From the NCBI GenBank assembly GCA_025350965.1, contig JANXWV010000072.1:1997-65996 (forward strand): DNA of 64,000 nucleotides. Reading direction: 5' to 3'. A program made the translations under genes and the position numbers. This document shows positions 1 to 43,020 of the stretch, in pieces. Positions within the stretch are counted from its first letter, which is position 1, and the number at the start of each line of letters is the position of its first letter. The notes under the pieces were generated by a model that worked only from the letters and a program-made list of their open reading frames with translations, was not told the DNA's origin and made no database searches. Source of the stretch: Rhizobacter sp. GTDB taxonomy: Bacteria > Pseudomonadota > Gammaproteobacteria > Burkholderiales > Burkholderiaceae_C.

Positions 1-2
1 TG

Positions 3-2312
3 ATGAGATTTTGGTGTGAGCTGCCGTTGCAGCAGGTGAGGCGCCGTGTCACGGCCAGCGTTGCTGCGCTGGCAGTGACGCTGTGCGGCGTGGTGCCGCT
101 GCACGCGGCATCGCCGCAGCCGGCATCCAACATTTCGGCCGACCTGGCGGCAGCTGTCAAATCGGGTGTGGTGCCGGCGGGCATGGTGTGGGGCAGCACG
201 TCCAGCGGGCTGGCGCTGGTGCAGGTGCTGATCGTGGCCACCGGGGCCGACGCCGACATGCCGGCCCTGCGCGCAGCGGTCGTGGCCAACGGCGGTTCGG
301 TGTTCATGCGCTATGCCTCGGTAAGCGCGTTGTCTGCACTGCTGCCGCTGAACCGCGTCACCACGATTGCGGCGCGCGCGGATGTGAGCAGCATCTCGCC
401 GAACCGCAGCACGGCGCGAACCGCCAGCCTGATCGAGACCACGACCGGCACCATCACCGGCACCTCGAGCGGCCCGCGCACCACCACTGGGGGCGTCAAC
501 ACCGGGCTGGACGGCAGCGGCATCGGCATCGCGGTGCTCGACTCCGGCGTCGCCACTTCGCACGCGGCCTTCCTTGGCACCGACGGGCTCAAGAGTCGCG
601 TCAGCCGCTCGGTCGACCTGCTCAAGTACAGCCAGCTTACGGGCCTGGGATCCGCCATGCTGGCCAAGAGCGCCAGCACCACCGACGCGACGGACAGCGC
701 CACCGGCACGAGCGGCTGGACACCCGGCGTCGACCTGTCGGACCCGATGGCGCCGGGCAGTCTGGCCCGCATGGCCTACGAGGGTGCGATCTCTACGAGC
801 GGCCTCAAGACGGCCCATGATCCTTACGGCCACGGTACGCATGTGGCCAGCATCGCCGCGGGGCAAGGCGGCTTTCGCACCCCCGATTCGACCGGCGTGG
901 CCCCGAACGCGACGCTGTTCGACGTGAAGGTCCTCGACGACGCGGGCGGCGGCCAGATGAGCGATGCGCTCGCTGGCATGGACTGGGTGCTGTTCCACGC
1001 CAGGGAGTACAACATCCGGGTGTTGAACGTTAGCCTTGCCGCCGATTCGACCGAGAGCTACCTGACCGACCCGTTGTGCCGCGCCGCGAGAGCGCTCAGC
1101 GCTGCCGGCATCACCGTGGTGGCGGCGGCCGGCAACTTCGGCCGCAGCAGCGCCGGGGCCGAGGTCTACGGCACCATCGGTGCGCCGGGCAACGACCCGA
1201 GCGTGATCACTGTCGGCTCCGACAATGCACGCGGCACCACGGGCCGCAACGACGACGTGGTCAACGGTTTCAGCTCGCGTGGCCCCACACGTGGCGGGTT
1301 CGTCGACAACACCGGCGCTCGCAAGGCCGACAACCTGCTCAAGCCCGACCTGATCGCGCCGGGCAACGCCGTGCTCGGCGCGGCGGCCACCGTCGGCGGC
1401 ACGCTCGACGCGCTGGCAGTCAAGTACCCGACGCTCGCCAGCGGATTCGGCGGTACGTCGCAACCCACCGATCAGGCCCTCAAGCTGCTGTCCGGCACCT
1501 CGGTGGCCGCGCCGGTGGTGGCCGGCGCGGTGGCGCTGATGCTGCAGGCCAACCCCGGCCTGACGCCGCCCCTGGTCAAAGCCATCCTCCAGTACAGCGC
1601 GCAGCCGCTGGCGACGCTCAATTTGCTGCAGCAGGGCGCAGGGCTCGTCAACGTGGCCGGCGCCGTCACGCTGGCCTCGGCGCTGCGCACCGATGTGGCG
1701 GCTGCGATCGCCGCAGGCGCGGTGGCTCCGGGCAGCTCGCTGGTCGCGGCTGGCAGGACGTTCCCGACGCGGGTCTCTTCGACCATCGGTGGTGTCAAGG
1801 CGCCATGGAGCCAACTCGTGATTGCCGGCGGCACCCACGTGCTGAGCGGTCAAGTGCTGACGCGGCACCAGCCCTTCTACGACCCGCGGCTGACCTGGGC
1901 GCGCAACAACCTGCTGCTCAACACCGTGACCTACTGGCCCGCCGCCACCAACGTCGCTGCCAACACCTTCGTCAAAGCCGTGCTCGAAACGCCGCTGGCC
2001 ACGCAGGTGCTCGTCTCGCCGGGGGTGATGCTTGGCGACCTGCTTGTCGGCATCAGCTCGTGGCGCGGCCGCACCGGGGCGTTCACGCCGACCCAGTTGC
2101 TGTCGAGCTGGCTCATCGCGGGCAGCGGGCTGACGCTGGGGCAGGGCATCACGATGTCCCAGGGCCTGACCATGGCCGAAGGCTTGACGATGGCTGAAGG
2201 TCTGACCATGGCCGAAGGCCTGACGATGGCCGAGGGGCTGACGATGGCCGAAGGGCTGACGATGGCCGAAGGCTTGACCATGGCAGAGAACGTCGCACTC
2301 GGCGAACCGTGA
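3..2312 (+). CDS. S8 (subtilisin-like) serine peptidase with signal peptide, propeptide and C-terminal hexapeptide repeats
   Basis: Catalytic triad motifs VLDSG, HGTHVA and GTSVAAP, plus AAAGN (oxyanion Asn) and KPDLIAPG. Hydrophobic N-terminus ending LHA-A. Start is at the window edge (TGATG). Confidence 0.93.
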   Translation: MRFWCELPLQQVRRRVTASVAALAVTLCGVVPLHAASPQPASNISADLAAAVKSGVVPAGMVWGSTSSGLALVQVLIVATGADADMPALRAAVVANGGSVFMRYASVSALSALLPLNRVTTIAARADVSSISPNRSTARTASLIETTTGTITGTSSGPRTTTGGVNTGLDGSGIGIAVLDSGVATSHAAFLGTDGLKSRVSRSVDLLKYSQLTGLGSAMLAKSASTTDATDSATGTSGWTPGVDLSDPMAPGSLARMAYEGAISTSGLKTAHDPYGHGTHVASIAAGQGGFRTPDSTGVAPNATLFDVKVLDDAGGGQMSDALAGMDWVLFHAREYNIRVLNVSLAADSTESYLTDPLCRAARALSAAGITVVAAAGNFGRSSAGAEVYGTIGAPGNDPSVITVGSDNARGTTGRNDDVVNGFSSRGPTRGGFVDNTGARKADNLLKPDLIAPGNAVLGAAATVGGTLDALAVKYPTLASGFGGTSQPTDQALKLLSGTSVAAPVVAGAVALMLQANPGLTPPLVKAILQYSAQPLATLNLLQQGAGLVNVAGAVTLASALRTDVAAAIAAGAVAPGSSLVAAGRTFPTRVSSTIGGVKAPWSQLVIAGGTHVLSGQVLTRHQPFYDPRLTWARNNLLLNTVTYWPAATNVAANTFVKAVLETPLATQVLVSPGVMLGDLLVGISSWRGRTGAFTPTQLLSSWLIAGSGLTLGQGITMSQGLTMAEGLTMAEGLTMAEGLTMAEGLTMAEGLTMAEGLTMAENVALGEP
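2127..2288 (+). repeat. In-frame 18-bp tandem repeat, 9 units: GLTLGQ, GITMSQ, (GLTMAE)x7
   Basis: Read directly. The seven GLTMAE units differ only at synonymous positions. Confidence 0.97.
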
Positions 2313-2394
2313 CGCGAGCTTGCCGCGCCCACCCGGTGTGACGACGCTGCCGACGACGCTTCAGTTCGGCGTAACCGCGGCCGAAACCTACCGC

Positions 2395-5070
2395 ATGCCC
2401 ACCCCGTTGCTCCCGTCACCACCGCTGATCGCAGCGTCGAGTCAGCGCCCGCCGTGGCCGCAGCGCCTGCACGCGAGGCTGATGCCCGACTACAACCGCC
2501 CCGCCACCGTGTTCTGGTGGTTGATGGTGGGCCTCGGCCTGGCGGCCTGCAGCCACTCGATTTTCACGCTGTCGGGCTTGCCAGCGCTCGCGCTGCTGCA
2601 ACTCGCCGGCGGGCTGCTGCTGGTGATGTTGATGGCACTCTTCCCGGTGAAGGTGCCGCGCACGAACCAGGTGTTCTCGATCGGCGACGTGTTCATCTTC
2701 CTGCTGCTGCTGACGCATGGCGCGGCTGCCGGCTGCCTGGCCGCTGCGCTCGAGGCGCTGGTGTCGTCATGGCGCAGCTCGGGGCGCTGGACTACGCGGC
2801 TGGGCAGCACCGGCATCGCCGCCTTCACGATGTGGGCCTGTGGCCAGTGGCTCGCGCCATGGGCCCCCCGCCCGGGCGCCGATTCGCCCTACAACGCTGC
2901 CGCACTGGTGCTTGCCACCATGGCCTTCGGCTTGCTGTACTGCGCCTGCAACGCGGTGCTGATGTCCACCGTGGGCCGCCTCAAGCGCAACGAGCCGGTC
3001 AACCTGTCGGGCTTGGTCACTGTGTTCGGCTGGGTCGGCGGGGCGAGCAGCGGCGCGGCGGCTATCGCGGCACTGCTGTTCATCACCACCCGCCTCGCCG
3101 GCGTGGCGGTGATGCTGACGATCGTGCCCACGCTCGGCCTGCTGCTGAGCACCTTGCACTTCTTCGCGCGCCAGCAAGAATCGGAGCGCGCCGTGCAACA
3201 GGCTGCGGCAGTCGCGCTGGAACGCGACGCGGCACTTGCCGCCAGTCAGGCGCGCGAGCGCGAGGCCGAGCTGGCGGCGCAGCACCTGCGTGAGCTGGAA
3301 GTCTCGGAGCGGCGCTTTCAGGGTGCGTTCACGCGCGCATCCATCGGCATGGCTCTCGTTTCGGTGGATGGGCAGATCCACTTGTGCAACCCGGCCTTGC
3401 GCAGCCTGCTCGCCGACGAGGCGGCCGAACTGGCAGGCCGCACGTTCGCGGACTTCGTCGCCCGCGACGACCGCAAGCGCCTGCATGCCACGCTGGCCGA
3501 GGTGGCACGCGGCAGCGCCGACACCTTGCCGGTTGAGCTGTGCTGCCACCGCGTCGGCGGCGGTGAGGTCTGGGCCAGCATCAGCTGCAGCCTGTTCGCA
3601 CTGCCCGACGCCGACGGGCCGAGCCTGATCCTGCAAATCCAGGACGTCACAGCCCGCCGGCAGGCCGAACTCGAACTGCAGCATCGTGCCTTCCACGACA
3701 AACTCACCGGCCTGCCCAACCGCGAGCGCTTCCATGAAGCGCTGCGGCTCGCGATCGCCCGGGCTGACAGCGGGCCGGGCCGGGCCTTCGCTGTGATGTT
3801 CCTCGACTTCGACCGCTTCAAGCTCATCAACGACAGCAAGGGCCACAGCGTGGGCGACGAGTTCCTGGTGCAGGCCTCGGCGCGCCTGGCGCTCGGCCTG
3901 CGCAGCGGCGACATGCTGGCGCGCCTGGGCGGCGACGAATTTGCGATCCTGGCCGTCGGCCTGCACCGCAACGCCGACGCGATGGACCTCGCCGAGCGCC
4001 TGCTGCTGGCGCTGCGCGAACCGCTGCAACTGGGCACGATGACGGTGACGGCCAGCGCCAGCATCGGCATCACGTTCAGCTCGACCGGGTATGCCCACCC
4101 CGAGGACATGCTGCGCGATGCCGATATCGCCATGTACCGCGCCAAGACCGAAGGGAAGGCGCGCTACGCGTTGTTCGACGCGCACCTGCACACTGAGGTG
4201 GCCGACCGCGTGCGCATGGAGGCAGAGCTGCGTCTCGCCCTGCCGCGGCAGGCGCTGAGCGTGGCCTACCAGCCGCTGGTTGATCTGCGCAGTGGCCGGA
4301 TCAAGGGCTTCGAAGCCTTGAGCCGCTGGACGCACCCCGAGCTTGGCATGGTGAGCCCGGCGGCGTTCATCCCGATCGCGGAAGAGGCGGGCCTGATCAC
4401 GCAGCTGACCGACTCGGTGGTGCGGCAGGCCTGTGCCGCGTTGCGCGGTTGGCAGCGCAGCTTCACCGGCTTCGGCGACTTGAGCGTGCATGTGAACGTG
4501 TCGGCGCGCGACGTGGCCGACCCGGAGTTCGTGTCGCGCATCCGACAGGTGCTGCAGGCCTGCGAGCTGGCGCCCCAACACTTGGTAATCGAGCTAACCG
4601 AGAACATCCTGATGGCGCAGCTCTCCGCCGCGATGGGCACCTTGCAGGCACTGCGCGAGTTGGGCGTCGGCCTGAGCGTGGACGACTTTGGCACCGGCTA
4701 TTCGTCGCTCAGCCACCTCGCGGTGCTGCCGATCGACAGCTTGAAGATCGACATGTCGTTCGTCAAGCCGCTGCGTGCCGGCTCGAAGGAGTCGTCGGTG
4801 GTTCGCGCCATCGTGCTGCTCGGCACGTCGCTCGGCAAGGAAGTGATCGCCGAAGGTGTCGAAACACTGGAGCAACTGGAGCTGCTGCGCGAGCTGGGTT
4901 GCGACTCGGGGCAGGGCTACTACATGTCGAAGCCGCTCGCGGCCGACGGGATCGAGCAGTTGCTGCGCGGACAGCAGGTGTGCCCAGGGTTGCCGGCGCG
5001 GGTGCCCGCGCAGGCTTTGGAACATTTTCAGGGCAGTGCCGCCCGCCCCATCGCCAGCGCCAGCCTGTAA
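2395..5070 (+). CDS. Membrane-anchored PAS-GGDEF-EAL diguanylate cyclase/phosphodiesterase
   Basis: Several N-terminal TM helices, PAS (F..A.IGMALV), DKLTGLPNR, RLGGDEF, FEAL, DDFGTGYSS, EGVE. ATG 2395 is preferred over TTG 2320. Confidence 0.92.
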   Translation: MPTPLLPSPPLIAASSQRPPWPQRLHARLMPDYNRPATVFWWLMVGLGLAACSHSIFTLSGLPALALLQLAGGLLLVMLMALFPVKVPRTNQVFSIGDVFIFLLLLTHGAAAGCLAAALEALVSSWRSSGRWTTRLGSTGIAAFTMWACGQWLAPWAPRPGADSPYNAAALVLATMAFGLLYCACNAVLMSTVGRLKRNEPVNLSGLVTVFGWVGGASSGAAAIAALLFITTRLAGVAVMLTIVPTLGLLLSTLHFFARQQESERAVQQAAAVALERDAALAASQAREREAELAAQHLRELEVSERRFQGAFTRASIGMALVSVDGQIHLCNPALRSLLADEAAELAGRTFADFVARDDRKRLHATLAEVARGSADTLPVELCCHRVGGGEVWASISCSLFALPDADGPSLILQIQDVTARRQAELELQHRAFHDKLTGLPNRERFHEALRLAIARADSGPGRAFAVMFLDFDRFKLINDSKGHSVGDEFLVQASARLALGLRSGDMLARLGGDEFAILAVGLHRNADAMDLAERLLLALREPLQLGTMTVTASASIGITFSSTGYAHPEDMLRDADIAMYRAKTEGKARYALFDAHLHTEVADRVRMEAELRLALPRQALSVAYQPLVDLRSGRIKGFEALSRWTHPELGMVSPAAFIPIAEEAGLITQLTDSVVRQACAALRGWQRSFTGFGDLSVHVNVSARDVADPEFVSRIRQVLQACELAPQHLVIELTENILMAQLSAAMGTLQALRELGVGLSVDDFGTGYSSLSHLAVLPIDSLKIDMSFVKPLRAGSKESSVVRAIVLLGTSLGKEVIAEGVETLEQLELLRELGCDSGQGYYMSKPLAADGIEQLLRGQQVCPGLPARVPAQALEHFQGSAARPIASASL

Positions 5071-5918
5071 GCCTGCGGCGAGTGGCCGGCCCGGCGCGCG
5101 AAGAAGCGCGCGAAGTAGGCCGGGTCGTCGAAGCCGAGGTCGCTGGCCACGTCGCTCACCGGCGCGGCGGTGTGGGCCAGCAGGCGCCGCGCCTCGACCA
5201 CCATGCGCTCGTGCAGCAGGCCCAGCGCCGACAGGCCGCTCACGCTGCGGCAGCTGCGGCTGAGGTGGTCCGGCGTGATGTGCAACTGCGCCGCGTAGAA
5301 GCCCAGCGGCCGGTGGCGCCGCAGGTGCCGCTCGATCAGCGCGCGATAGCGTGCCACCAGCGTGTCGCGCAGCGCACGCTGGTTCTCGGCGGCCGACGGC
5401 GGCGCGGCGCGGCGCAGCAGCCACGTGACGAACAGCACCAGATGCGCCTGCAGGGCTTCGCTGCGGCCGGCCGCGTTGCCCTCGAATTCGGCAGCCAGGC
5501 CGGCGCAAAGTTCGGCGAGGCGCGGCGCCTCGCCTTCGAGCACGTGGCCCTGCACGATGTGCGTGTGGCGCAGCAGCGCGGCCAGCGCGGGCGCGGCGCC
5601 GAACGCCGCTTCGAGTCGCGCCGAGGGCACGGTGACCTGCTGGCCCGCCGTGCTGCGCTGGTAGCGGAAGCCGTGCACGCAGCCCGGCGCGATCATCAGC
5701 ACGGCCGGTGCCGCCACGGTGTGCGGCACGTCGTCGAGCGTCACCACCGCCTTGCCTCGGAGCAGGCACTGCAGCTGGTGCAGCCCCTCGTGGCGATGCG
5801 CCGGAATCGTCCATCCGAACTCTTCGCCGCGCAGCGCGATGGGCTCGCAGTGGAGCCAGTCGTCCGGGCGGAAATGGCGCACCTCGCGGAAGGCGACAGC
5901 GAGCGGGGCGGTCTTCAT
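5028..5918 (-). CDS. AraC-family transcriptional regulator (PobR-like, cupin + HTH)
   Basis: LHCEPI..W.IPAHRHEGLHQ N-terminus and LGFDDPAYFARFF C-terminal HTH; divergent from the Bug gene. Confidence 0.9.
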   Translation of the reverse strand: MKTAPLAVAFREVRHFRPDDWLHCEPIALRGEEFGWTIPAHRHEGLHQLQCLLRGKAVVTLDDVPHTVAAPAVLMIAPGCVHGFRYQRSTAGQQVTVPSARLEAAFGAAPALAALLRHTHIVQGHVLEGEAPRLAELCAGLAAEFEGNAAGRSEALQAHLVLFVTWLLRRAAPPSAAENQRALRDTLVARYRALIERHLRRHRPLGFYAAQLHITPDHLSRSCRSVSGLSALGLLHERMVVEARRLLAHTAAPVSDVASDLGFDDPAYFARFFARRAGHSPQAYRLALAMGRAALP

Positions 5919-6026
5919 GGATGCCGGAAATGTACCGGAGCGGTCCGGTTCGTCCATGGTGTTGCCGGCGCGTCGGCCGCAACATCACGATCAGACGGCC
6001 ACACGAGCCGCAGCCAGGAGACAGCC

Positions 6027-7013
6027 ATGATCGTTCGTCGAAGCGTGTTTCACGCGTTGGTCTTGTCGCTCGCCCTCGCCCTCGCGCCCGCCGCGAGCGC
6101 GCTGGCGCAGCCGGCCCAGACGGTGGTGTGGTCGGGCTTCCCGCCCGGCGGCCTGGGCGACCAGGTGTCGCGGCCGCTGATGGAGCGGCTCAAGAACCGT
6201 TACGCCGGAACGCTGATCCTCGACAGCAAGCCCGGCGCCGGCGGCCGCATTGCCGCCGACTACGTGAAGCGCGCCGCACCCGATGGCGCCACGCTGCTGC
6301 AGGTGCCGTCGTCGATCGTCACCGTGTACCCGCACACCTACGGCAAGAAGCTGGGTTACGACCCGATGGTCGACTTCGTGCCTGTGGCCACGCTGGCGGC
6401 CTACACGATATCGATGACGGTGGGCCCGATGGTGCCGCCGGAGGTGAAGACCGTGCAGGACTTCGTGGCCTGGGCCAAGGCCAACCCGAACCTGGCCAAC
6501 TACGGCATCCCGGCACCGGGTTCGTCGCCGCACTTCGTCGGCATGATGTTCGAGCGCGCCTCGGGCCTACCGCTGCGCAGCATCCCGTACAAGGGCGGCG
6601 CGCCGTTGCTGCAGGATTTGATGGGCGGCCAGGTGCCGGTGGCCTTCAACGTCATCAGCGAGGTGCTGCCGCACCTCAAGAGCGGCAAGCTGCGGTCGCT
6701 GGCCGTGGCCAGCCCACAGCGCTGGGCCGCCGCGCCCGATGTGCCGACCTTCACCGAGCTGGGCTACAAGGACATCGTCGTCGTCGAGTTCCTGGGCTGG
6801 TACGCGCCGGCCAGGACACCGCCGCAACTCGTGCGCCAGCTCAACGCGGCGGTGCAAGACGCGATCGGCTCGCCCGAGATGCAGGAGGTGTTCACGCGCA
6901 ACGGGCTGCTGCCCTTGCGCGATTCGCCCGAGGCCATGGCGGCGCGCGTGAAGACCGAACTCACCCGCTGGGGCCCGATCGTCAAGGCCACCGGGTTCAA
7001 CCCGGAAGACTGA
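6027..7013 (+). CDS. Bug/TctC-family tripartite tricarboxylate transporter substrate-binding protein
   Basis: GFPPGG..D, KPGAGG.I, PDG.TLL and PYKGGAP.LQDLMGG motifs; RBS AGGAG before ATG 6027. Confidence 0.92.
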   Translation: MIVRRSVFHALVLSLALALAPAASALAQPAQTVVWSGFPPGGLGDQVSRPLMERLKNRYAGTLILDSKPGAGGRIAADYVKRAAPDGATLLQVPSSIVTVYPHTYGKKLGYDPMVDFVPVATLAAYTISMTVGPMVPPEVKTVQDFVAWAKANPNLANYGIPAPGSSPHFVGMMFERASGLPLRSIPYKGGAPLLQDLMGGQVPVAFNVISEVLPHLKSGKLRSLAVASPQRWAAAPDVPTFTELGYKDIVVVEFLGWYAPARTPPQLVRQLNAAVQDAIGSPEMQEVFTRNGLLPLRDSPEAMAARVKTELTRWGPIVKATGFNPED

Positions 7014-9322: not shown

Positions 9323-10791
9323 GTCGGCCCTGCGAAATCCATCGTCATCCCGTCGGCAGACATGACGTAACCGGCCTGCGTCGGCACTCAGGTTGCTCAT
9401 CTGCTCGCCCGGCGGCAGGTGTTGGAATTCGCAGAACGCGGCCGATGCATGCTGCATAGAACGCCAGTTGCGAGAACACCAAAACAAGGGCTGCCAGCCC
9501 CTTGGCGGCGATCGCCCGCAGCAGCGAGCGGGTGGTGAGCCTGCTGCCACAGCACTGCATGCAACGCGTCACCACTGCTGCCGCCAAGCCAGCAGCGATC
9601 CATGCGGTTGTCGCTCTTCGTGTGGCCGATCGCCGGCGCGATCACCCGGCGCCGCTTGAGCCAGCGGCGCTGCTGCGCATCGAGTAATTTGAACTTGCCA
9701 CGGTGGATGATCTGCACCGGCGCGCAGGCTTCATCGACGCCGCGGAACCCCAGATCAACAACCGCCGTGGTGGGCTTGACGCGGATGTCTTGCAACAGCG
9801 TGTTGGTCTGCTGCAGTTGTTCTGCCAGCGTGTGGCCGTCATACGGATAGCCGGGGAAGGACCGCGCGCCCACCAGCAAGCCGTGCCGGTGCGTGACGGC
9901 CAGGCTGACCTTCACGCCGAACTCGCAGGGCTTGCGCGCCTTGCCCTTGCCGATGCATTCCACCTCGGGCGCATGCAGTGCGTAGAGCTTGTTCTTGCTG
10001 TGGCGCTGCTGGGTGCGGATGCGCTCGGCGCGCGCCAGCCACATCGTCAGCTCTGCGATCGCCAGTGTCATGGGTTCAAGCCCTGCCATCACTTGCGGGC
10101 CTGCCCGCGAAATCGATTCCAGACCGCGCTGTGCATTGCGCATGAGTGCGCCCAGGATCGTGCGCTGGCGCTTGACCGTGCGGCGCAGGCGCTTGAACTG
10201 CTTGGCGTGGGCAAATCCACCGGCCTTGCGACGCAGCTCCTAGCCCTCCTTGGCGAAGGTCTGCTTGAGCGCGATGCCGCAGCGCTCGGCGGCGCTGGCC
10301 CTTTTGTGGCGCGCGATCTCCAACAGGCGGCTGTCGGTCGGGTGCGCGATGGCCTTCTCTTGCACCGTGGTGTCCACGATGATCATCTCGAACTCGGCCT
10401 TCTTGAGCACCCCCATCGAGACCGACGCTCCGATGGTGGACTTGAGCAACTGCTCGACACCCACTTCAACCAGCACACGGAGAAAGCGGCCGATCTGGGT
10501 GACGTCGCACGGCAGGCGCGGCTCGTAGTCCGCCATGCCGCTCGAAAACTGCCAAGCCGCGTTCTCGCTCCAGCTCTCGCAGAGTTCTCAATGGCTGAGG
10601 TTGAAGGCGTGCTTGAGGTACAGCAGTGCCACCATCAAGCGGATTGGCAACCGCGGGCGGCCGGCGTTGCTCAGGCCAGCTCCAGCGAGTTGCGCAATGT
10701 CGATTGGAATCAATCCCGGGAGTTCGCGCCATTGGCGTTCACCCCGCAGAGCAAGCGTCTATGCGGGGTGACGGAGATTTGCAGGGCCGAC
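9323..10791 (-). mobile_element. IS5-family insertion sequence, inactivated
   Basis: Terminal IRs GTCGGCCCTGC (9323-9333) and GCAGGGCCGAC (10781-10791), each flanked by TA; contains transposase fragments. Confidence 0.82.
9397..10680 (-). pseudogene. IS5-family transposase pseudogene
   Basis: LLYLKHAFNLS, IVDTTVQEKAIAHPTDSRLL and KLYALHAPEVECIGKGKARKP.EFGVKVS motifs; in-frame stops near 10588 and 10240 and a degraded C-terminus. Confidence 0.88.
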
Positions 10792-11909: not shown

Positions 11910-11972
11910 GGCCCGAGAAGTCGGCCTGAGAAGTCGGCCCGAGAAGTCGGCCCGAGAAGTCGGCTCGAGAAG
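11910..11972. repeat. 13-bp tandem repeat GGCCCGAGAAGTC, ~5 units
   Basis: Read directly; three exact and two variant units. Confidence 0.9.
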
Positions 11973-12473: not shown

Positions 12474-13286
12474 ATGCCATTCTTCGGAAACACCAAAAGT
12501 TTTCTGGCTCTGGCCTGCCTGGTGGCCGCGCCGTCTCTGGCCTCGGCAGTCGAAATCTCCAAGACCGTCGACGTCAGCGTCTATCAGGTCTGTGCTTCTG
12601 CCGCTGAATGCGCCAGCACAGGTCCGGTGGGGAATTCCTACTACGCCGCCGAAACCAACAAGATCTGGGCTCAAGCTGGCATCAGCGTGACCTTCTCGTT
12701 TGTTTCGCAGATCGTGAATAGCTACTACTACAACCTGAGCGACAACACCGTGGGTGTCGCCACGTTCGACGATCTGTACAACTCCGTCTTCCCCGGCTTG
12801 GCTCGCGTGAACCACACGAGCGTGGCCATGTTCCTCATCAACGACTACGACGGCGCTTATGGTGTGGGCTTCAGCGGGGCCGGTGGCTTGGTCATGTCCA
12901 TGTCCGCGATCAGTAGCTTCGATTGCGGCGGCCAAGTTGGCTGCACGGGCCGGATTGACACGCTGGCGCACGAGTTGGGCCACAACTTCGGTCTCGTCCC
13001 GGAGTATTTTCCCGACTATGCGGGTGCCGCTGATCCCGGTCATTCGATCAATCCAAACGATCTGATGGCCGGTGGCGGCATCCGCAACGTTCCGACGACG
13101 CTGGCCGATGTCAATCCGGATGGTCTGGGCTTGGACCGCCTGCCGCAGAGTCACATCGACTATGCGCGCCAAAGTTCGCTTCTGCGCGATGTTGCCGTGA
13201 CCGCGGTGCCAGAACCGAGCACGTACGCGCTGCTCGGTTTGGGGCTGGCCGCGATCACGGCTGTTCGCCGCCGTCGCGCGGCTTGA
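12474..13286 (+). CDS. PEP-CTERM-anchored zinc metallopeptidase-like protein
   Basis: Signal peptide, TLAHELGHNFGL zinc motif, NDLM Met-turn-like motif, C-terminal VPEPSTYALLGLGL..RRRR. Confidence 0.85.
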   Translation: MPFFGNTKSFLALACLVAAPSLASAVEISKTVDVSVYQVCASAAECASTGPVGNSYYAAETNKIWAQAGISVTFSFVSQIVNSYYYNLSDNTVGVATFDDLYNSVFPGLARVNHTSVAMFLINDYDGAYGVGFSGAGGLVMSMSAISSFDCGGQVGCTGRIDTLAHELGHNFGLVPEYFPDYAGAADPGHSINPNDLMAGGGIRNVPTTLADVNPDGLGLDRLPQSHIDYARQSSLLRDVAVTAVPEPSTYALLGLGLAAITAVRRRRAA

Positions 13287-14090: not shown

Positions 14091-14480
14091 TTGATCGCCC
14101 CTGCGTCGGCCGCCTGCGATGAGCCAGGCGCGTCGATCTCCGGGGTAGCCCTCGAGCACGGCCTGAACGCCAACCTCGTTCACAAGTGGCGCTCCGGTCG
14201 CGGCGTCAAGCTCGCCACCCGCGTGGCGGTTGAGCCATCCCCGAAGAGTGAGGTGCCCAGGCTACCCATGCCGGAAACATCGCTGCTTCTCGCCGCCGGC
14301 GCCGAGTTCATTGCGATCAAGATGCCCGCACCTGCCAAGATGGCGCCGCGAGTTGCGGCCAATCCGTCCGACGCGGCGCCGATTGCCGAGCCGCTGATCC
14401 AGGTCGAACTTCGCCGCGGTCCGCTGCACCGCACCGGGCGCTGGCCTGCGTCGGCTGCCGATGACTGTACGGTCTGGTGA
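14091..14480 (+). pseudogene. IS66-family TnpA (HTH) remnant
   Basis: EPGASISGVALEHGLNANLVHKWR and IQVELRRG motifs; 5' end truncated. Confidence 0.78.
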
Positions 14481-14840: not shown

Positions 14841-14905
14841 CGGAAGTATGTACTTGACAAACGCAGATTGAAAGCCGATCATTGCTCTATTCCCGGAGCA
14901 ATGAC

Positions 14906-15829
14906 ATGGCCGAAGCAATCCACACCGCAGCACGATTCAACGATGAAGACGCGGCGCGCGAGCATCTTGAATCGATCCGCTGGCCCAATGGCCCGGTATG
15001 CCCGCACTGCGGCGGCACAGACCGCAATAGCCGCCTGAACGGCACGTCGCATCGTCCCGGCCTGCTGTTCTGCGGCGACTGCCGTATGCAGTTCAGCGTG
15101 ACCGTTGGCACTGTATTCGAGCGTTCCAAGGTCGCGCTTCACAAGTGGGTCTATGCCTCGCACCTGATGTGCGCAAGCAAGAAGGGGATCAGCGCCAAGC
15201 AGTTGGAACGCATGCTTGGCGTGACCTACAAAACCGCATGGTTCATGGCACACCGCATTCGTGAAGCCATGAACATCGAGCCGACAGGCCAACTCGGCGG
15301 GAGCGGCGCACCGGTCGAAGTCGATGAAACCTATTGGGGCAACGTCGGCAAGCACACGCCGGGCGCTCGCAGTTTCCATCACAAGATGAAGATCGTCACG
15401 CTGGTCGAGCGTGATGGTGAGAAGCGCTCGTATCACTTGCCTTCGGTCAACCACAAAACCCTGTTCCCGATCATGCAAGCGCAGATCGCAGAGAAGGCTC
15501 GCTTGATGACCGATCAGGCCGGCGTGTACGAGAAGATCGGCCCGAGCTTTGGCTCGCATGAAGTGGTGAACCACTCGAAGAAAGAATATGCGCGCGGTGA
15601 CGTAACGACGAACACGGTCGAGTCGAGTTTCGCGATCCTCAAGCGCGGCCTCTACGGCACGTTCCACAGCGTTAGCGAGCAGCATCTGCAACGCTACGCG
15701 ACTGAGTTCGACTTCCGTTGGAACACGCGCCAAGCGCTGGGCTTCAATGACGCCGATCGCGCAGCCGTGACGTTGAAGAACATCGGCGGCAAGCGACTGA
15801 CATATCGGCGATCTGGTCAAGCCTCCTAA
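14906..15829 (+). CDS. IS1595-family transposase
   Basis: RWPNGPVCPHCG zinc ribbon, FSVTVGTVFE, GVTYKTAWFM.HRIRE, VEVDETY, LMTD, VNHS, TNTVES and EFDFRWN; RBS GGAG. Confidence 0.95.
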   Translation: MAEAIHTAARFNDEDAAREHLESIRWPNGPVCPHCGGTDRNSRLNGTSHRPGLLFCGDCRMQFSVTVGTVFERSKVALHKWVYASHLMCASKKGISAKQLERMLGVTYKTAWFMAHRIREAMNIEPTGQLGGSGAPVEVDETYWGNVGKHTPGARSFHHKMKIVTLVERDGEKRSYHLPSVNHKTLFPIMQAQIAEKARLMTDQAGVYEKIGPSFGSHEVVNHSKKEYARGDVTTNTVESSFAILKRGLYGTFHSVSEQHLQRYATEFDFRWNTRQALGFNDADRAAVTLKNIGGKRLTYRRSGQAS

Positions 15830-30764: not shown

Positions 30765-33725
30765 TCACGGCACGAGCAAGATGTCGTCGATCAGGAAGCC
30801 GCCACCGGTGAAGAGTTGGCCGTTCTGAATGCCCACCGGGCCGATCGCGAAGGTCGTTTCGAAGAACACGCCCACCGTACCGTTCGGAATCAGAAGCGTC
30901 GTGCCGAACTTCGTCCAGGTGTTCGGGTTGACGCTGTTCAGCGTCTGGCCCAGGGTCTGCGCCAGGATGTTGCCGGTGCCGTCGAGGTAGCGCAGTGCCC
31001 AGGTCAGGTTGCCGGTCGTGCCGGTCGTGCCCTTGGCCCAGAAGCTGAACGTCGCCGTCTTGCCCCAGTTCGCAGGGCTCAAGGTCAGCCCACCGTTGTC
31101 GGCCGAGTTGCCGAACAGTGTGGAGCCACACAGCTGCGGGCAGGTGACCGACGCCGAGAAACCGCCGCTGTGCGAGTCGGTCGACAGCGTCGCCGCGCCC
31201 GACCCACCCGGCGTGAGCCAGTAGCCCGCGCCCTGGTTGCCGGCCGAGGGCTGCGTGCCGGTCAAGTAGATCGCCGTGGCACTCTCGAAGCCGCCGTTGG
31301 CGATCAGCTGCTTTGCGACGGCAAACGTCACCGATACCGGCGTGGCCGCGGCGTAGGTGCCGTTGCCGGCCTGGCTGGCAGTGATGGTGCAGCTGCCCAC
31401 GGCCTGCAGCAGCAGCGCGGTGCCGTTGACGCTACAGACGCTGGGCGTCGTGGAGGCGAGGCTCACCGCCAAGCCGGACGTGGCGCTCGCCGACAGTGCC
31501 GCCGGCGCGGTTTCCGGCAAGGTGGTGAAACCGGTGATCGTCTGGGCGCCGGGCAGCGTGAACGAGATCGTCTGCGGGGTCGGCTGAGGTGCCGCGACGG
31601 TGAACGAATTCGACACCGGTGTGGCTGCTGCAAACACCCCGTTGCCGGCCTGGCTGGCGGTGATGTTGCAGGTGCCGACAGCCACCAACGTCAGCGTCGT
31701 GCCGCTGGCAGTGCAGACACCGGGCGTCGTGGTTGCGAAGCTCACCGCCAAGCCCGACGTGGCACTGGCCGACAGCGCCGCCGGCGCAATGCCCAGGGTC
31801 TGATTGCCTGGTGACGGGAAGCTGATGGATTGCGCGATCAACGGCGCTGCCGCGACCGTGAACGAGCGCGCGATCGGCGTGGCTGCCGAATAGGTGCTGT
31901 TGCCGGCCTGGCTGGCCGTGATGCCGCACGTGCCGACCGCCACCAACGACAGCGTGGTCCCGCTGGCAGTACAGACGCTCGGTGTGGTGGACGCGAAGCT
32001 CACCACCAGCCCCGAACTGGCGCTGGCCGACAGCGGCGCCGGCGCGGTGCCCAGGGTCTGGTTGCTTGGCGACGCGAACGTGATCGTTTGTGCGATCAAC
32101 GGGGCGGCTGCAACCGCGAACGAGTTCGCGACCGGCGTGGCGGCCGAATAGGTGCTGTTGCCGGCCTGGCTGGCCGTGATGCTGCAGGTGCCGACCGCCA
32201 CCAACGACAGCGTGTTCCCGCTGACGGTGCAGACGCCGCTCGTGGTGGAAGCAAAGCTCACCGCCAGCCCCGAGCTGGCGCTGGCTGAAAGCGGTGCCGG
32301 CGCCGTGCCGAGAGTCTGGCTGCCGGGCGACGTGAACGTGATGCTCTGCGCAATCAAGGGCGCTGCAGCGACCGTGAACGAGTTCGTCACCGGCGTGGCG
32401 GCGGTGAAGCTGGCGTTGCCGGCCTGGCTGGCCGTGATGCTGCAGGTGCCCACCGCCACGAGCGTGACGGTGTTGCCGCTGACCGTGCAGACGCTGGCCG
32501 TGTTCGATGCGAAGGTCACCGCGAGGCCCGAGCTGGCGCTGGCCACCAGTGCCGGCGGCGCGGTGCCCAGCGTCTGGTTGCCCGGCGCCGTGAAGCTGAT
32601 GGCCTGTGCGACAGGCAGTGGTGCGGCGACCGCGAAGGTGCGCGTGACGGTCGTTGCCGGCGCGTACGCGGCATTGCCGGCCTGGCTCGCATCGAGGCTG
32701 CAGGTGCCGACCGACACCAGGGTCAACGTGCTGCCGTTGACAGTGCACACGCCGGCCGTGGTGGACGCCAGCGACACCGGCAGGCCCGACGACGAGGTGG
32801 CCACCAGCGCCGCAGGGGCCGTGCCGAGGGTCTGGTTGCCGGGCGAGGTGAAGCTGATGACCTGCGGCGCAGTGGCGACCGTGAACGAGATCATCACCGA
32901 GGTGGCGGCGGCGTACACCGTGTTGCCGCCCTGGCTGGCGCTGGCTGTGCAGGTGCCGGCGCTGACCAAGATGAGCGTGCTGCCGCTCACGGTGCAAACC
33001 GCTGGCGTGGTCGATGCGAAGCTCACCGCGAGACCGGAGGTGGCATTCGCCGCCAGCAGCGGCGCGGCCGTGCCCAGGGTCTGGTTGCCGAGTGCGGCGA
33101 AGTTGATGGTCTGCGAAAGCAGGCCCGTCGCGACGTCGAAGCTGTGCGAGACGGCCGTGGCGGCAAGGTAGTTGGAGTTACCGGCCTGGCTTGCAGTGAG
33201 TGTGCAGGTGCCAACGCTGACCAGCGTGAGAGTGGTGCCGTTGACCGTGCAGACCGCCGGCGTGGCCGACACGAATGTGACCGCCAGACCCGACGATGCC
33301 GTGCCCATCAGTGCCGCAGGCACCGCGTTGAGGGCCTGGTTGCCGGGCGAGAGGAAGGTGATGGCCTGCGCGCCGGCAGCCACGGCGAAGCTGGTCGTGA
33401 CCGGCGTGGCGGCGGCGTAGGTCGCGTCGCCCGCCTGGCTTGCAGTGACGCTGCAGTTGCCTGCGCCGACCTGGCTCGCGACGGTACCGCTGACCGTGCA
33501 CACCGCCGGGGTGGTGGACGCGAACGACACCGCCAGGCCGGAACTCGATGTGGCGCTGAGGTTGAGCGGCGCCGCCCCGACCGACTGGCCGGCGGGCGCG
33601 GCGAAGCTGATCGTCTGCGCCACCGGCTGGGCGCTGGGGCTGTCGCTGCCGCCGCAGGAGCCGAGCGCAAGCATCGCCCCGAGGGCCAAGGCCCAGGTCA
33701 GGCTTTTCGGGATGGGGTGGCTCAT
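30765..33725 (-). CDS. Lipoprotein with 9 Ig-like repeats and a C-terminal CBM-like domain
   Basis: Lipobox LGSC; nine ~85-aa repeats (Q.I.F..PG.QTLG..SSGL.V.F.S.T..VC...GTC.ITASQ.GN); terminal domain LIANGGFES..FSFWAKG..FLIDDI. Confidence 0.88.
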   Translation of the reverse strand: MSHPIPKSLTWALALGAMLALGSCGGSDSPSAQPVAQTISFAAPAGQSVGAAPLNLSATSSSGLAVSFASTTPAVCTVSGTVASQVGAGNCSVTASQAGDATYAAATPVTTSFAVAAGAQAITFLSPGNQALNAVPAALMGTASSGLAVTFVSATPAVCTVNGTTLTLVSVGTCTLTASQAGNSNYLAATAVSHSFDVATGLLSQTINFAALGNQTLGTAAPLLAANATSGLAVSFASTTPAVCTVSGSTLILVSAGTCTASASQGGNTVYAAATSVMISFTVATAPQVISFTSPGNQTLGTAPAALVATSSSGLPVSLASTTAGVCTVNGSTLTLVSVGTCSLDASQAGNAAYAPATTVTRTFAVAAPLPVAQAISFTAPGNQTLGTAPPALVASASSGLAVTFASNTASVCTVSGNTVTLVAVGTCSITASQAGNASFTAATPVTNSFTVAAAPLIAQSITFTSPGSQTLGTAPAPLSASASSGLAVSFASTTSGVCTVSGNTLSLVAVGTCSITASQAGNSTYSAATPVANSFAVAAAPLIAQTITFASPSNQTLGTAPAPLSASASSGLVVSFASTTPSVCTASGTTLSLVAVGTCGITASQAGNSTYSAATPIARSFTVAAAPLIAQSISFPSPGNQTLGIAPAALSASATSGLAVSFATTTPGVCTASGTTLTLVAVGTCNITASQAGNGVFAAATPVSNSFTVAAPQPTPQTISFTLPGAQTITGFTTLPETAPAALSASATSGLAVSLASTTPSVCSVNGTALLLQAVGSCTITASQAGNGTYAAATPVSVTFAVAKQLIANGGFESATAIYLTGTQPSAGNQGAGYWLTPGGSGAATLSTDSHSGGFSASVTCPQLCGSTLFGNSADNGGLTLSPANWGKTATFSFWAKGTTGTTGNLTWALRYLDGTGNILAQTLGQTLNSVNPNTWTKFGTTLLIPNGTVGVFFETTFAIGPVGIQNGQLFTGGGFLIDDILLVP

Positions 33726-42891: not shown

Positions 42892-43020
42892 GACCTTGGC
42901 GTAGACCTTGGCGTAGACCTTGGCGTAGACCTTGCCGTTGCCGTTGCCATTTGCCGTTGCCGTTGCAGTTGCAGTTGCAGTTGCAGTTGCAGTTGCAGTT
43001 GCAGTTGCAGTTGCAGTTGC
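42892..43020. repeat. Compound microsatellite: (GACCTTGGCGTA)x3, GTTGCC units, (GTTGCA)x~10
   Basis: Read directly; lies in the divergent intergenic region. Confidence 0.95.

Follow-up and report, generated by a model that had tools for sequence, protein, structure and literature searches.

In RRNPP systems such as Rap-Phr, Rgg-SHP and NprR-NprX, precursor and receptor genes are adjacent, the precursor is exported, a short mature peptide derives from its C-terminal region, the peptide can be duplicated within the gene, and the signal is imported by Opp and read inside the cell, as given in the portions of two accounts considered here (PMC10075063, PMC13220807). The subject of the present study is a gene pair at the start of a 64,000-nucleotide stretch of Rhizobacter sp. 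DNA (assembly GCA_025350965.1, contig JANXWV010000072.1, positions 1,997 to 65,996; the window). Its first gene encodes a 769-residue S8 protease (subtilase) that ends in a tail of hexapeptide repeats, and its second a sensor protein of about 890 residues, in which an N-terminal membrane domain is followed by PAS, GGDEF and EAL domains. We lean towards reading the pair as a private peptide signal together with the receptor for it, in which the peptide would be exported, cut out, imported and read from inside. Read in this way from its sequence, the module would resemble RRNPP systems in its adjacent genes (82 nt separate the protease stop from the sensor ATG), its exported precursor, its short C-terminal peptide, the repetition of this peptide within one gene, its import step and its reading inside the cell. 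However, RRNPP propeptides have 10–100 residues and their receptors are soluble tetratricopeptide repeat (TPR) proteins of 250–500 residues, according to the same portion of one account (PMC10075063), whereas here the precursor would be an entire protease and the receptor a membrane protein without a TPR family. The module also differs in its output, which is cyclic di-GMP (c-di-GMP) or a kinase, and in its hosts, which are Betaproteobacteria and Acidobacteriota.

For the sensor, the nearest described family is MASE9 (PF20972), which has eight membrane segments, two of them short and forming a hairpin, is found fused to HD-GYP or GGDEF-EAL and has no known ligand (Galperin and Chou, bioRxiv 10.1101/2021.11.05.467447, in part). 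The model of the window sensor likewise has eight segments with two short ones, and its relatives show the same promiscuous fusion to HD-GYP and GGDEF-EAL, but the window sensor itself does not match PF20972. The part of the MASE9 account considered names neither ligand nor partner gene, and the word 'peptidase' does not occur in it. In the S-components that belong to energy-coupling factor (ECF) transporters, as well as in 5TMR receptors, the loop that follows helix 1 lies outside the cell, and 5TMR proteins illustrate that the S-component fold can act as a receptor when it carries an extra N-terminal helix (Partipilo and Slotboom, PMC11109136, in part). With S-components and 5TMR-LYT proteins (BtsS/YpdA) the sensor shares a predicted six-helix core and a ligand cavity; it differs from them by flanking extra helices, which are predicted to invert the core, by the proposed peptide ligand and by outputs that include c-di-GMP enzymes. 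The part of that article considered does not contain the terms MASE, 'inverted' or 'protease'. A description of the module itself was not found in the literature searched, mostly by narrow open-access searches with subscription journals largely outside them; the earlier note, written from the letters of the window alone, had likewise known of no such system. We regard the module as real, conserved and undescribed in this literature, and its mechanism as inferred. The features of the gene pair are as follows.

3..2312, + strand: S8 (subtilase) protease gene with repeat tail, 769 aa (open reading frame, Pfam)
3..107, + strand: N-terminus resembling a signal peptide (basic, hydrophobic, LHA-A), on inspection by eye and from homologue N-termini
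138..410, + strand: putative prodomain, suggested by an alpha/beta model and a match to the N-terminal part of Tk-SP
513..1616, + strand: S8 catalytic domain (D180, H277, S500, oxyanion N378; G393) (Pfam, motif positions)
1680..2126, + strand: beta-rich C-terminal domain without Pfam family (confident structure model)
2127..2288, + strand: nine hexapeptide units, GLTLGQ, GITMSQ and GLTMAE x7 (candidate signal peptide copies)
2163..2288, + strand: seven perfect GLTMAE units (repeat analysis)
2289..2312, + strand: terminal NVALGEP and stop
2395..5070, + strand: sensor-PAS-GGDEF-EAL gene (frame open from 2320, first ATG at 2395)
2467..3189, + strand: membrane sensor domain of eight helices, a divergent relative of MASE9 (ECF S-component fold and inverted orientation predicted)
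2671..2673, + strand: codon of V118 in the L1 beta-hairpin of the sensor, co-varying with repeat position 5 (Ala in the window)
3310..3663, + strand: PAS domain of the sensor gene (Pfam)
3676..4173, + strand: GGDEF domain, including the GGDEF and RxxD motifs (Pfam, motifs)
4222..4935, + strand: EAL domain with catalytic motifs (Pfam, motifs)

Repeat tail and conservation of the gene pair

The protease ends in GLTLGQ GITMSQ (GLTMAE)x7 NVALGEP, which confirms the nine units and seven perfect copies of the earlier note; the nine units lie at 2127–2288. The seven GLTMAE copies comprise six distinct DNA units (units 5 and 6 are identical) that differ only at synonymous positions, with a proportion of silent differences (pS) of 0.61, a proportion of amino acid-changing differences (pN) of 0 and at least seven substitutions, all of them silent. 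Silent sites make up 26% of the unit, and the all-silent pattern has a probability of about 8e-5 under neutrality. Purifying selection thus acts on the repeat of the window, and the earlier proposal of selection on the peptide stands. Contigs from three of four sediment runs of one study, possibly the one that yielded this DNA, cover approximately positions 510–3822 without gaps, hence the tail and the gene junction are not an assembly artefact. In the contig, in-frame ATG codons lie 4 and 10 codons 5' of position 3, so that the protease start may fall just outside the window. The second gene has the domain order that had been read from its translation, with intact motifs (RxxD five residues ahead of the GGDEF motif, and those of the EAL domain); its N-terminal membrane domain gave no Pfam match. 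No sigma-70-like promoter was found in positions 1–6200 of the window, and no good match to a sigma-54 site was present upstream of either copy of the module in this genome (scores 7 and 5 of 11); across module loci, sigma-54 sites occurred at 8/58 compared to 2/58 control stretches.

A search with protease residues 380–769 gave 1,070 matches among 7,993 scored candidates. Among the best 120 of these homologues plus the query, 81 of 121 proteins carry a repeat tail, 78 of the 81 end in G[ED]x, and many of those without a tail look truncated or frameshifted. The loci come from 73 records of genomes and 78 of metagenomes, corresponding to the best 80 of 530 and the best 80 of 510 confirmed matches, and the counts include kin and a few duplicate records. 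The hosts are Rubrivivax, Piscinibacter, Ideonella, Usitatibacter and other Betaproteobacteria as well as Blastocatellia. Units were chosen by a motif pattern, and after arrays with fewer than five units or containing N had been dropped, 143 arrays from the 151 loci were kept, with a consensus of Gly, three hydrophobic residues, a small residue and an acid. pN was below pS in 143/143 arrays, with a median ratio of 0.12 that the motif-based choice of units biases downwards, and unit identity was 0.91 within arrays vs 0.52 between them. Two free-standing open reading frames (ORFs) composed of repeats (G017:C129 and G029:C3) were rejected, the first as the edge of a contig and the second as a gap of N.

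A sensor gene lies at most 1.5 kb downstream of 94 of the 116 evaluable tail-bearing S8 genes in the 151 loci, directly next to the protease gene in 76 cases, after a GNAT gene in 16 and otherwise in two. A further 56 S8 genes were set aside (22 precede another S8 gene, 21 had too little room and 13 were cut), and three loci had no recognised tail. Starting from the sensor alone gave a similar picture: 32 sensor genes were matched in 21 of 251 genomes of the family, and 29 of them have an S8 gene beside them (27 directly upstream, one about 0.9 kb upstream, one convergent), while three have none. The genome of the window contains a second complete module (G000:C142:22024-27001; L026, L197), in which an S8 protease with GIVLSE and GLVLSE x7 is paired with a sensor-PAS-GGDEF-EAL protein that has Ser at position 118. 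Across the loci, the input domain is fused to GGDEF-EAL, to HD-GYP-GAF, to several histidine kinases or to PAS alone, and since the same input domain feeds such varied outputs, the membrane domain is the constant partner of the tail. A profile of the distant sensor type matched in 79/301 Acidobacteriota genomes and in 0/300 other Pseudomonadota genomes sampled. The adjacency of protease and sensor, which the earlier note had proposed to look for in other genomes, is therefore conserved in two phyla and with GGDEF-EAL, HD-GYP and kinase outputs. Named carriers in culture are Rubrivivax albus ICH-3 (L091) and, with the protease, Piscinibacter caeni MQ-18 (L080).

The layout varies among loci. 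Two tandem sensor genes follow one protease gene or array in L046, L076, L086, L093, L120 and L287, and the two genes are convergent on opposite strands in L045, L054 and L229. In L062, L065, L054 and L095 the sensor stops behind a complete or incomplete PAS domain and has no enzyme output, and several Acidobacteriota sensors are open frames of less than 320 aa. Tandem arrays of two to at least four repeat-tailed S8 genes, sometimes with differing units and sometimes without a downstream sensor, occur in L052, L079, L130, L083, L059 and L110. In L171 (1525-2445) and eight other Asp-type loci, an upstream membrane protein without Pfam family is present, probably as kin synteny, and in the Asp-type proteases of L117 (7074-9500), L165 and L233 a fibronectin III domain follows the repeats, which are thus internal.

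The tails that go with more distant sensors contain Trp (IIWG, VIWTD and VLWSD types), and some of them are irregularly spaced; the irregular spacers fit a string of linear motifs better than a coil. In 9 of 101 distinct Acidobacteriota sensor loci we found tiny ORFs with an ATG start, a Shine-Dalgarno-like sequence and no signal peptide, which end exactly at the acid and contain one motif each, or three in one ORF (MSKLIIWGE, MKIWHWGD, MNVIYWTD and MARLIIWGD are examples). They occur in 8/45 loci with an S8 gene upstream and in 1/50 with nothing recognised upstream; four cases were seen before the search pattern was fixed and five after. As background, the pattern gave three Trp-type matches in 8.6 Mb of the genome of the window, and 4.26 Mb of loci gave a single further match, a non-Trp sequence. 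The tiny ORFs point to a free C-terminal Asp or Glu and a ligand that acts in the cytoplasm. A conserved GNAT-family gene (300 aa) lies between Asp-type protease and sensor (L164:6842-7741 and similar), following the protease gene in 23 Asp-type loci and one Glu-type locus, and in L156 (6852-10016) GNAT, sensor and GGDEF-EAL form a single frame; the GNAT could modify or inactivate the peptide. The GNAT profile of the adjacency counts (104 matches) was contaminated by one GNAT-sensor fusion, 13 loci were checked by sequence, and the profile was rebuilt for the surveys of Trp-type tails and tiny ORFs. With this query, the Asp-type GNAT was not found in the 88% complete genome of the window, where a short weak match (E 5.6e-5) covered 57 of 318 positions.

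Sensor domain and its co-variation with the repeat

PF20972 gave no match to the window sensor at E 0.1 and stays below the Pfam cut-off; it matched 5/83 close members of the sensor family, these weakly, and 15/22 distant members (best 1.1e-12). The profiles of the distant and the close subfamily match each other at E 2e-49, and for one stored homologue the top Atlas clusters are MASE9 (0.94). Judged by this chain of profile matches, the sensor domain is a divergent MASE9 relative, in a family of 2,105 clusters at 50% identity and E up to 1e-10. The structure model, with a predicted local distance difference test score (pLDDT) of 92.6, has helices at residues 11-35, 40-57, 73-84, 86-104, 108-132, 142-173, 180-211 and 214-240. 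In a structure search against 48,161 chains, ranks 1–14 were all ECF S-components or their relatives, with 4hzu_S as the best match (Z 13.7, root-mean-square deviation 3.3, 163 aligned residues), although a Z of about 13 among helical bundles may be just a common arrangement, which is a first reservation against the proposed receptor. Foldseek agrees weakly (best E 0.018), and weak Pfam ECF matches were obtained for 6 and 4 of the 83 sensor members. An ECF S-component fold is thus predicted for model residues 34–215, with one extra helix on either side.

Lys/Arg-rich loops of membrane proteins are cytoplasmic according to the positive-inside rule. In the sensor family, the mean number of Lys and Arg is 2.2 in L1, 3.7 in L3 and 3.4 in L5, compared to 0.9, 0, 1.1 and 0.6 in the loops that alternate with them, and the PAS domain, which is cytoplasmic, is preceded by an extra, eighth helix of hydrophobic character. 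Whereas S-components are stand-alone subunits with outward odd loops, the sensor is a signalling fusion with positively charged odd loops, and by the positive-inside rule its core is predicted to be inverted, with the cavity facing the cytoplasm. An inward-facing pocket, which the earlier note had not foreseen, would require either an import step or an intracellular source of the peptide.

Because tail and sensor are neighbours on the DNA, their co-variation was also tested against linkage, segment by segment. Of the 94 pairs, 79 passed the length and motif filters (77 without near-identical sensors), and in these 79 the repeat distance followed the sensor tree distance with a partial r of 0.50. 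For the 39 Glu-type GGDEF-EAL pairs, controlled for the body of the protease and for the output domains of the sensor, the partial r was 0.56 for the sensor, –0.06 for the protease body and –0.24 for the output domains. The signal was strongest in the segment from the L1 hairpin to H4 (r 0.72, partial 0.69) and persisted there without the Phe-type clade (0.58, 32 pairs), whereas the protease segment adjoining the tail reached r 0.30 and partial 0.14. The co-variation that the earlier note had suggested looking for was thus found, beyond the shared descent of the remainder of both proteins. Part of the sensor changes in step with the repeat across relatives, so that the repeat probably serves as a private peptide signal.

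At the level of single residues, sensor position 118 stood out. In Glu-type pairs it is hydrophobic in 8/8 cases with an Ala-type repeat position 5 and polar in 47/47 with a Ser-type one; over all pairs the counts are 9/12 and 53/53. It ranks first among the 234 columns of the sensor (Fisher 6.9e-9, next column 7e-3), compared to 2.7e-4 for the best of 374 protease columns. In 35 loci outside the discovery set, 28/28 Ser-type loci have Ser at 118 and 0/4 Ala-type loci do (V, F, F, R), one of the latter being a close relative of the window; three other tail types carry Ser there. The window pair combines Ala with Val, and the paralogous C142 pair Ser with Ser. The trait changes nine times on the protease tree. 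Given these patterns, sensor residue 118 may read peptide position 5 as a specificity code. In L066, the clade of the protease body differs from that of the Phe-type tail and the sensor, which probably reflects a recombination that transferred tail and sensor jointly.

Proposed peptide processing and competing explanations

The window protease matches Peptidase_S8 (PF00082) over residues 171–538 (E 4.9e-40, 138 bits vs a cut-off of 21.8), and its catalytic D180, H277 and S500 and oxyanion N378 are invariant across 28 homologues; database entries call homologues 'AprX' or 'S8 family'. The enzyme is therefore predicted to be a proteolytically active subtilase with an intact active site, and its export is likely judging from its N-terminus. 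Among solved structures, the protease profile matches Tk-SP from Thermococcus kodakarensis (PDB 3AFG) best (E 5.3e-61), but the match to it and to AprX-like subtilases covers only the prodomain and the catalytic domain; the C-terminal beta domain and the repeat tail have no Pfam family. Position 393, which we take from subtilisin numbering rather than from an alignment to be the floor of the S1 pocket, is His in 18/21 enzymes with Asp-type tails vs 0/56 with Glu-type tails, which carry Gly, Ser or Thr (G393 in the window). In Asp-specific plant phytaspases, the S1-pocket residue His331 is proposed to bind a P1 Asp and an Asp is present at the prodomain junction (PMC6043521, in part). The Asp-type relatives would share this His if this numbering holds, but these enzymes, including that of the window, lack an acidic residue where the prodomain is probably cut, and with G393 the window enzyme lacks the combination of an S1 His or Lys with an acidic P1 at the junction.

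In the reading that we prefer, the subtilase, which is likely exported, would release its tail in the form of single GLTMAE hexapeptides with a free terminal acid, after cleavage behind Glu by the window enzyme or by another peptidase, which may trim the tail. The hexapeptide would re-enter the cell through Opp/Dpp-type permeases, bind the predicted cytoplasm-facing pocket and switch the PAS-GGDEF-EAL output by shifting the balance of cyclase and phosphodiesterase, with the direction of the c-di-GMP change likewise inferred. In favour of an import step, the genome of the window encodes 11 family-5 peptide-binding proteins (SBP_bac_5), none of them tied to the locus. The peptide may be used as a kin or density signal, and the second pair of the genome (GLVLSE, Ser at 118) would form a separate channel. 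Whether the module represents a form of Gram-negative cell-to-cell signalling, in which a secreted protease carries a multi-copy hexapeptide pheromone that is re-imported and read by an inverted vitamin-transporter fold linked to c-di-GMP enzymes or kinases, with a residue-118 code and several orthogonal channels per genome, appears to us evenly balanced. All readings in which the peptide is the ligand, taken together, are highly probable in our view.

Several observations weigh against the proposed import and sensing of a cleaved peptide. Cleavage, import, binding and output change are each proposals drawn from sequence. Since the window enzyme is of the G393 type and lacks an acid at the junction, self-cleavage after Glu is without sequence support, and since the His-393 enzymes form a single clade, with three Asp-type enzymes lacking the His, this residue reflects one evolutionary event. 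No peptide transporter recurs in the module neighbourhoods, and the genome of the window gave no above-cut-off match to the PTR2 peptide transporter. Among the evaluable tails, 22/116 have no downstream sensor, and 50/101 Acidobacteriota sensor loci have neither an S8 nor a GNAT gene within 1.5–1.8 kb upstream. In a scan of 211 tails, no tiny ORFs were found after Glu-type ones like that of the window. The Mantel p values of the co-variation ignore kinship, and the residue-118 pair was chosen after the fact; among independent pairs, five change in the same way, none in the opposite way and one shows no difference (p 0.0625). Three Asp-type Ala tails go with Ser at 118 and one new Ala-type tail with Arg. 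Joint transfer of tail and sensor by DNA linkage has become less likely as an explanation, but keeps some probability.

Unlikely, though it agrees with all co-variation data, is a ligand from the same cell, in which an un-exported or degraded precursor, or the product of a tiny gene, binds the inward pocket and the pair monitors expression or export of the protease. The predicted inward orientation of the pocket, tiny ORFs and a GNAT (judged by eye in Asp-type loci) without signal peptides, the lack of a conserved importer nearby and the missing sign of Glu specificity in the protease all suit this explanation. However, many identical copies under selection and differing peptides in two paralogues of one genome fit an amplified, diffusible and specific signal better, and arrays of three or four protease genes as well as sensor-less proteases are hard to explain as export monitors.

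We consider it quite improbable that the tail or its pieces are read from the periplasmic side, either by a sensor in the canonical S-component orientation or after entry of the peptide into the pocket from the membrane or by partial toppling, without importer. S-components and 5TMR receptors bind their ligands from outside and a toppling-like motion has been proposed for them (PMC11109136, in part); the apparent export of the protease and the hydrophobic core of the peptide would also be in line with such a mode. On the other hand, approximately nine Lys/Arg residues in L1, L3 and L5 and the eighth helix leading to PAS place these loops inside, and products of leaderless tiny ORFs would stay off the outside.

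Distinctly improbable, in our estimate, is a purely structural tail (beta-helix, amyloid, anchor or auto-inhibitor), with a sensor that is co-inherited but has another ligand and a co-variation caused by DNA linkage. One Asp-type relative has weak matches below the cut-off to Hexapep (E 0.0019) and LbH (E 0.0043) and the window tail itself none in Pfam, the model shows strands for the two degenerate units at the start of the array, and proteases without sensor also keep homogeneous tails (median share 0.88). Against this, the perfect units have a pLDDT of 26–33 in the AlphaFold model, in which the C-terminal beta domain is confidently predicted. Unit numbers range from 5 to 21 per array without a preference for counts divisible by three (54/36/53 of 143), the spacers of Trp-type tails are irregular and there are tiny genes with a single unit. 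Moreover, the tail-adjoining protease segment tracks the tail far less than the sensor pocket does, and the residue-118 coupling recurs in several lineages. The earlier interpretation, which had left open whether the tail yields peptides or forms a beta-solenoid or amyloid, is thus partly supported: the unit numbers, the low-confidence tail, the irregular spacers and the tiny genes favour its peptide branch over its solenoid or amyloid branch. Regulated proteolysis, in which the protease would cleave the sensor or a partner and the tail would be a docking tag, could account for the operon-like arrangement in which a protease with intact active site is coupled to a membrane sensor, but is very remote given the short and poorly conserved predicted periplasmic loops of the sensor and the tiny genes without protease domain.

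Neighbouring features and significance

The remainder of the window contains the following features.

5028-5957, – strand: AraC-family regulator containing a cupin domain; the gene is convergent with the sensor gene, of which it overlaps the final 43 bases
11910-11972: 13-base repeat, five copies
12474-13286, + strand: secreted-looking protein, from its translation
31639-33372: 258-base repeat, about seven copies
42932-43020: TTGCAG repeat, 15 copies

Beyond the AraC-family gene follow a divergent tripartite-type binding protein and an ORF resembling thiamine-diphosphate enzymes. Transposase-like fragments and one longer transposase-like ORF were recognised by eye at 9397-10536, 14091-14480 and 14882-15829. 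In the secreted-looking protein, we take HELGH to be a metalloprotease-like motif and the C-terminal VPEP to be part of a sorting-like segment.

If the peptide reading of the protease-sensor pair is true, GLTMAE and its counterparts would represent the first ligand class for the orphan MASE9 membrane sensors, and signalling by imported peptides would extend to Gram-negative bacteria of sediment and soil. An S-component fold would then serve as a peptide receptor in inverted orientation. The natural fusions of this receptor to cyclases, phosphodiesterases and kinases may additionally offer an orthogonal tool to convert peptide signals into c-di-GMP.

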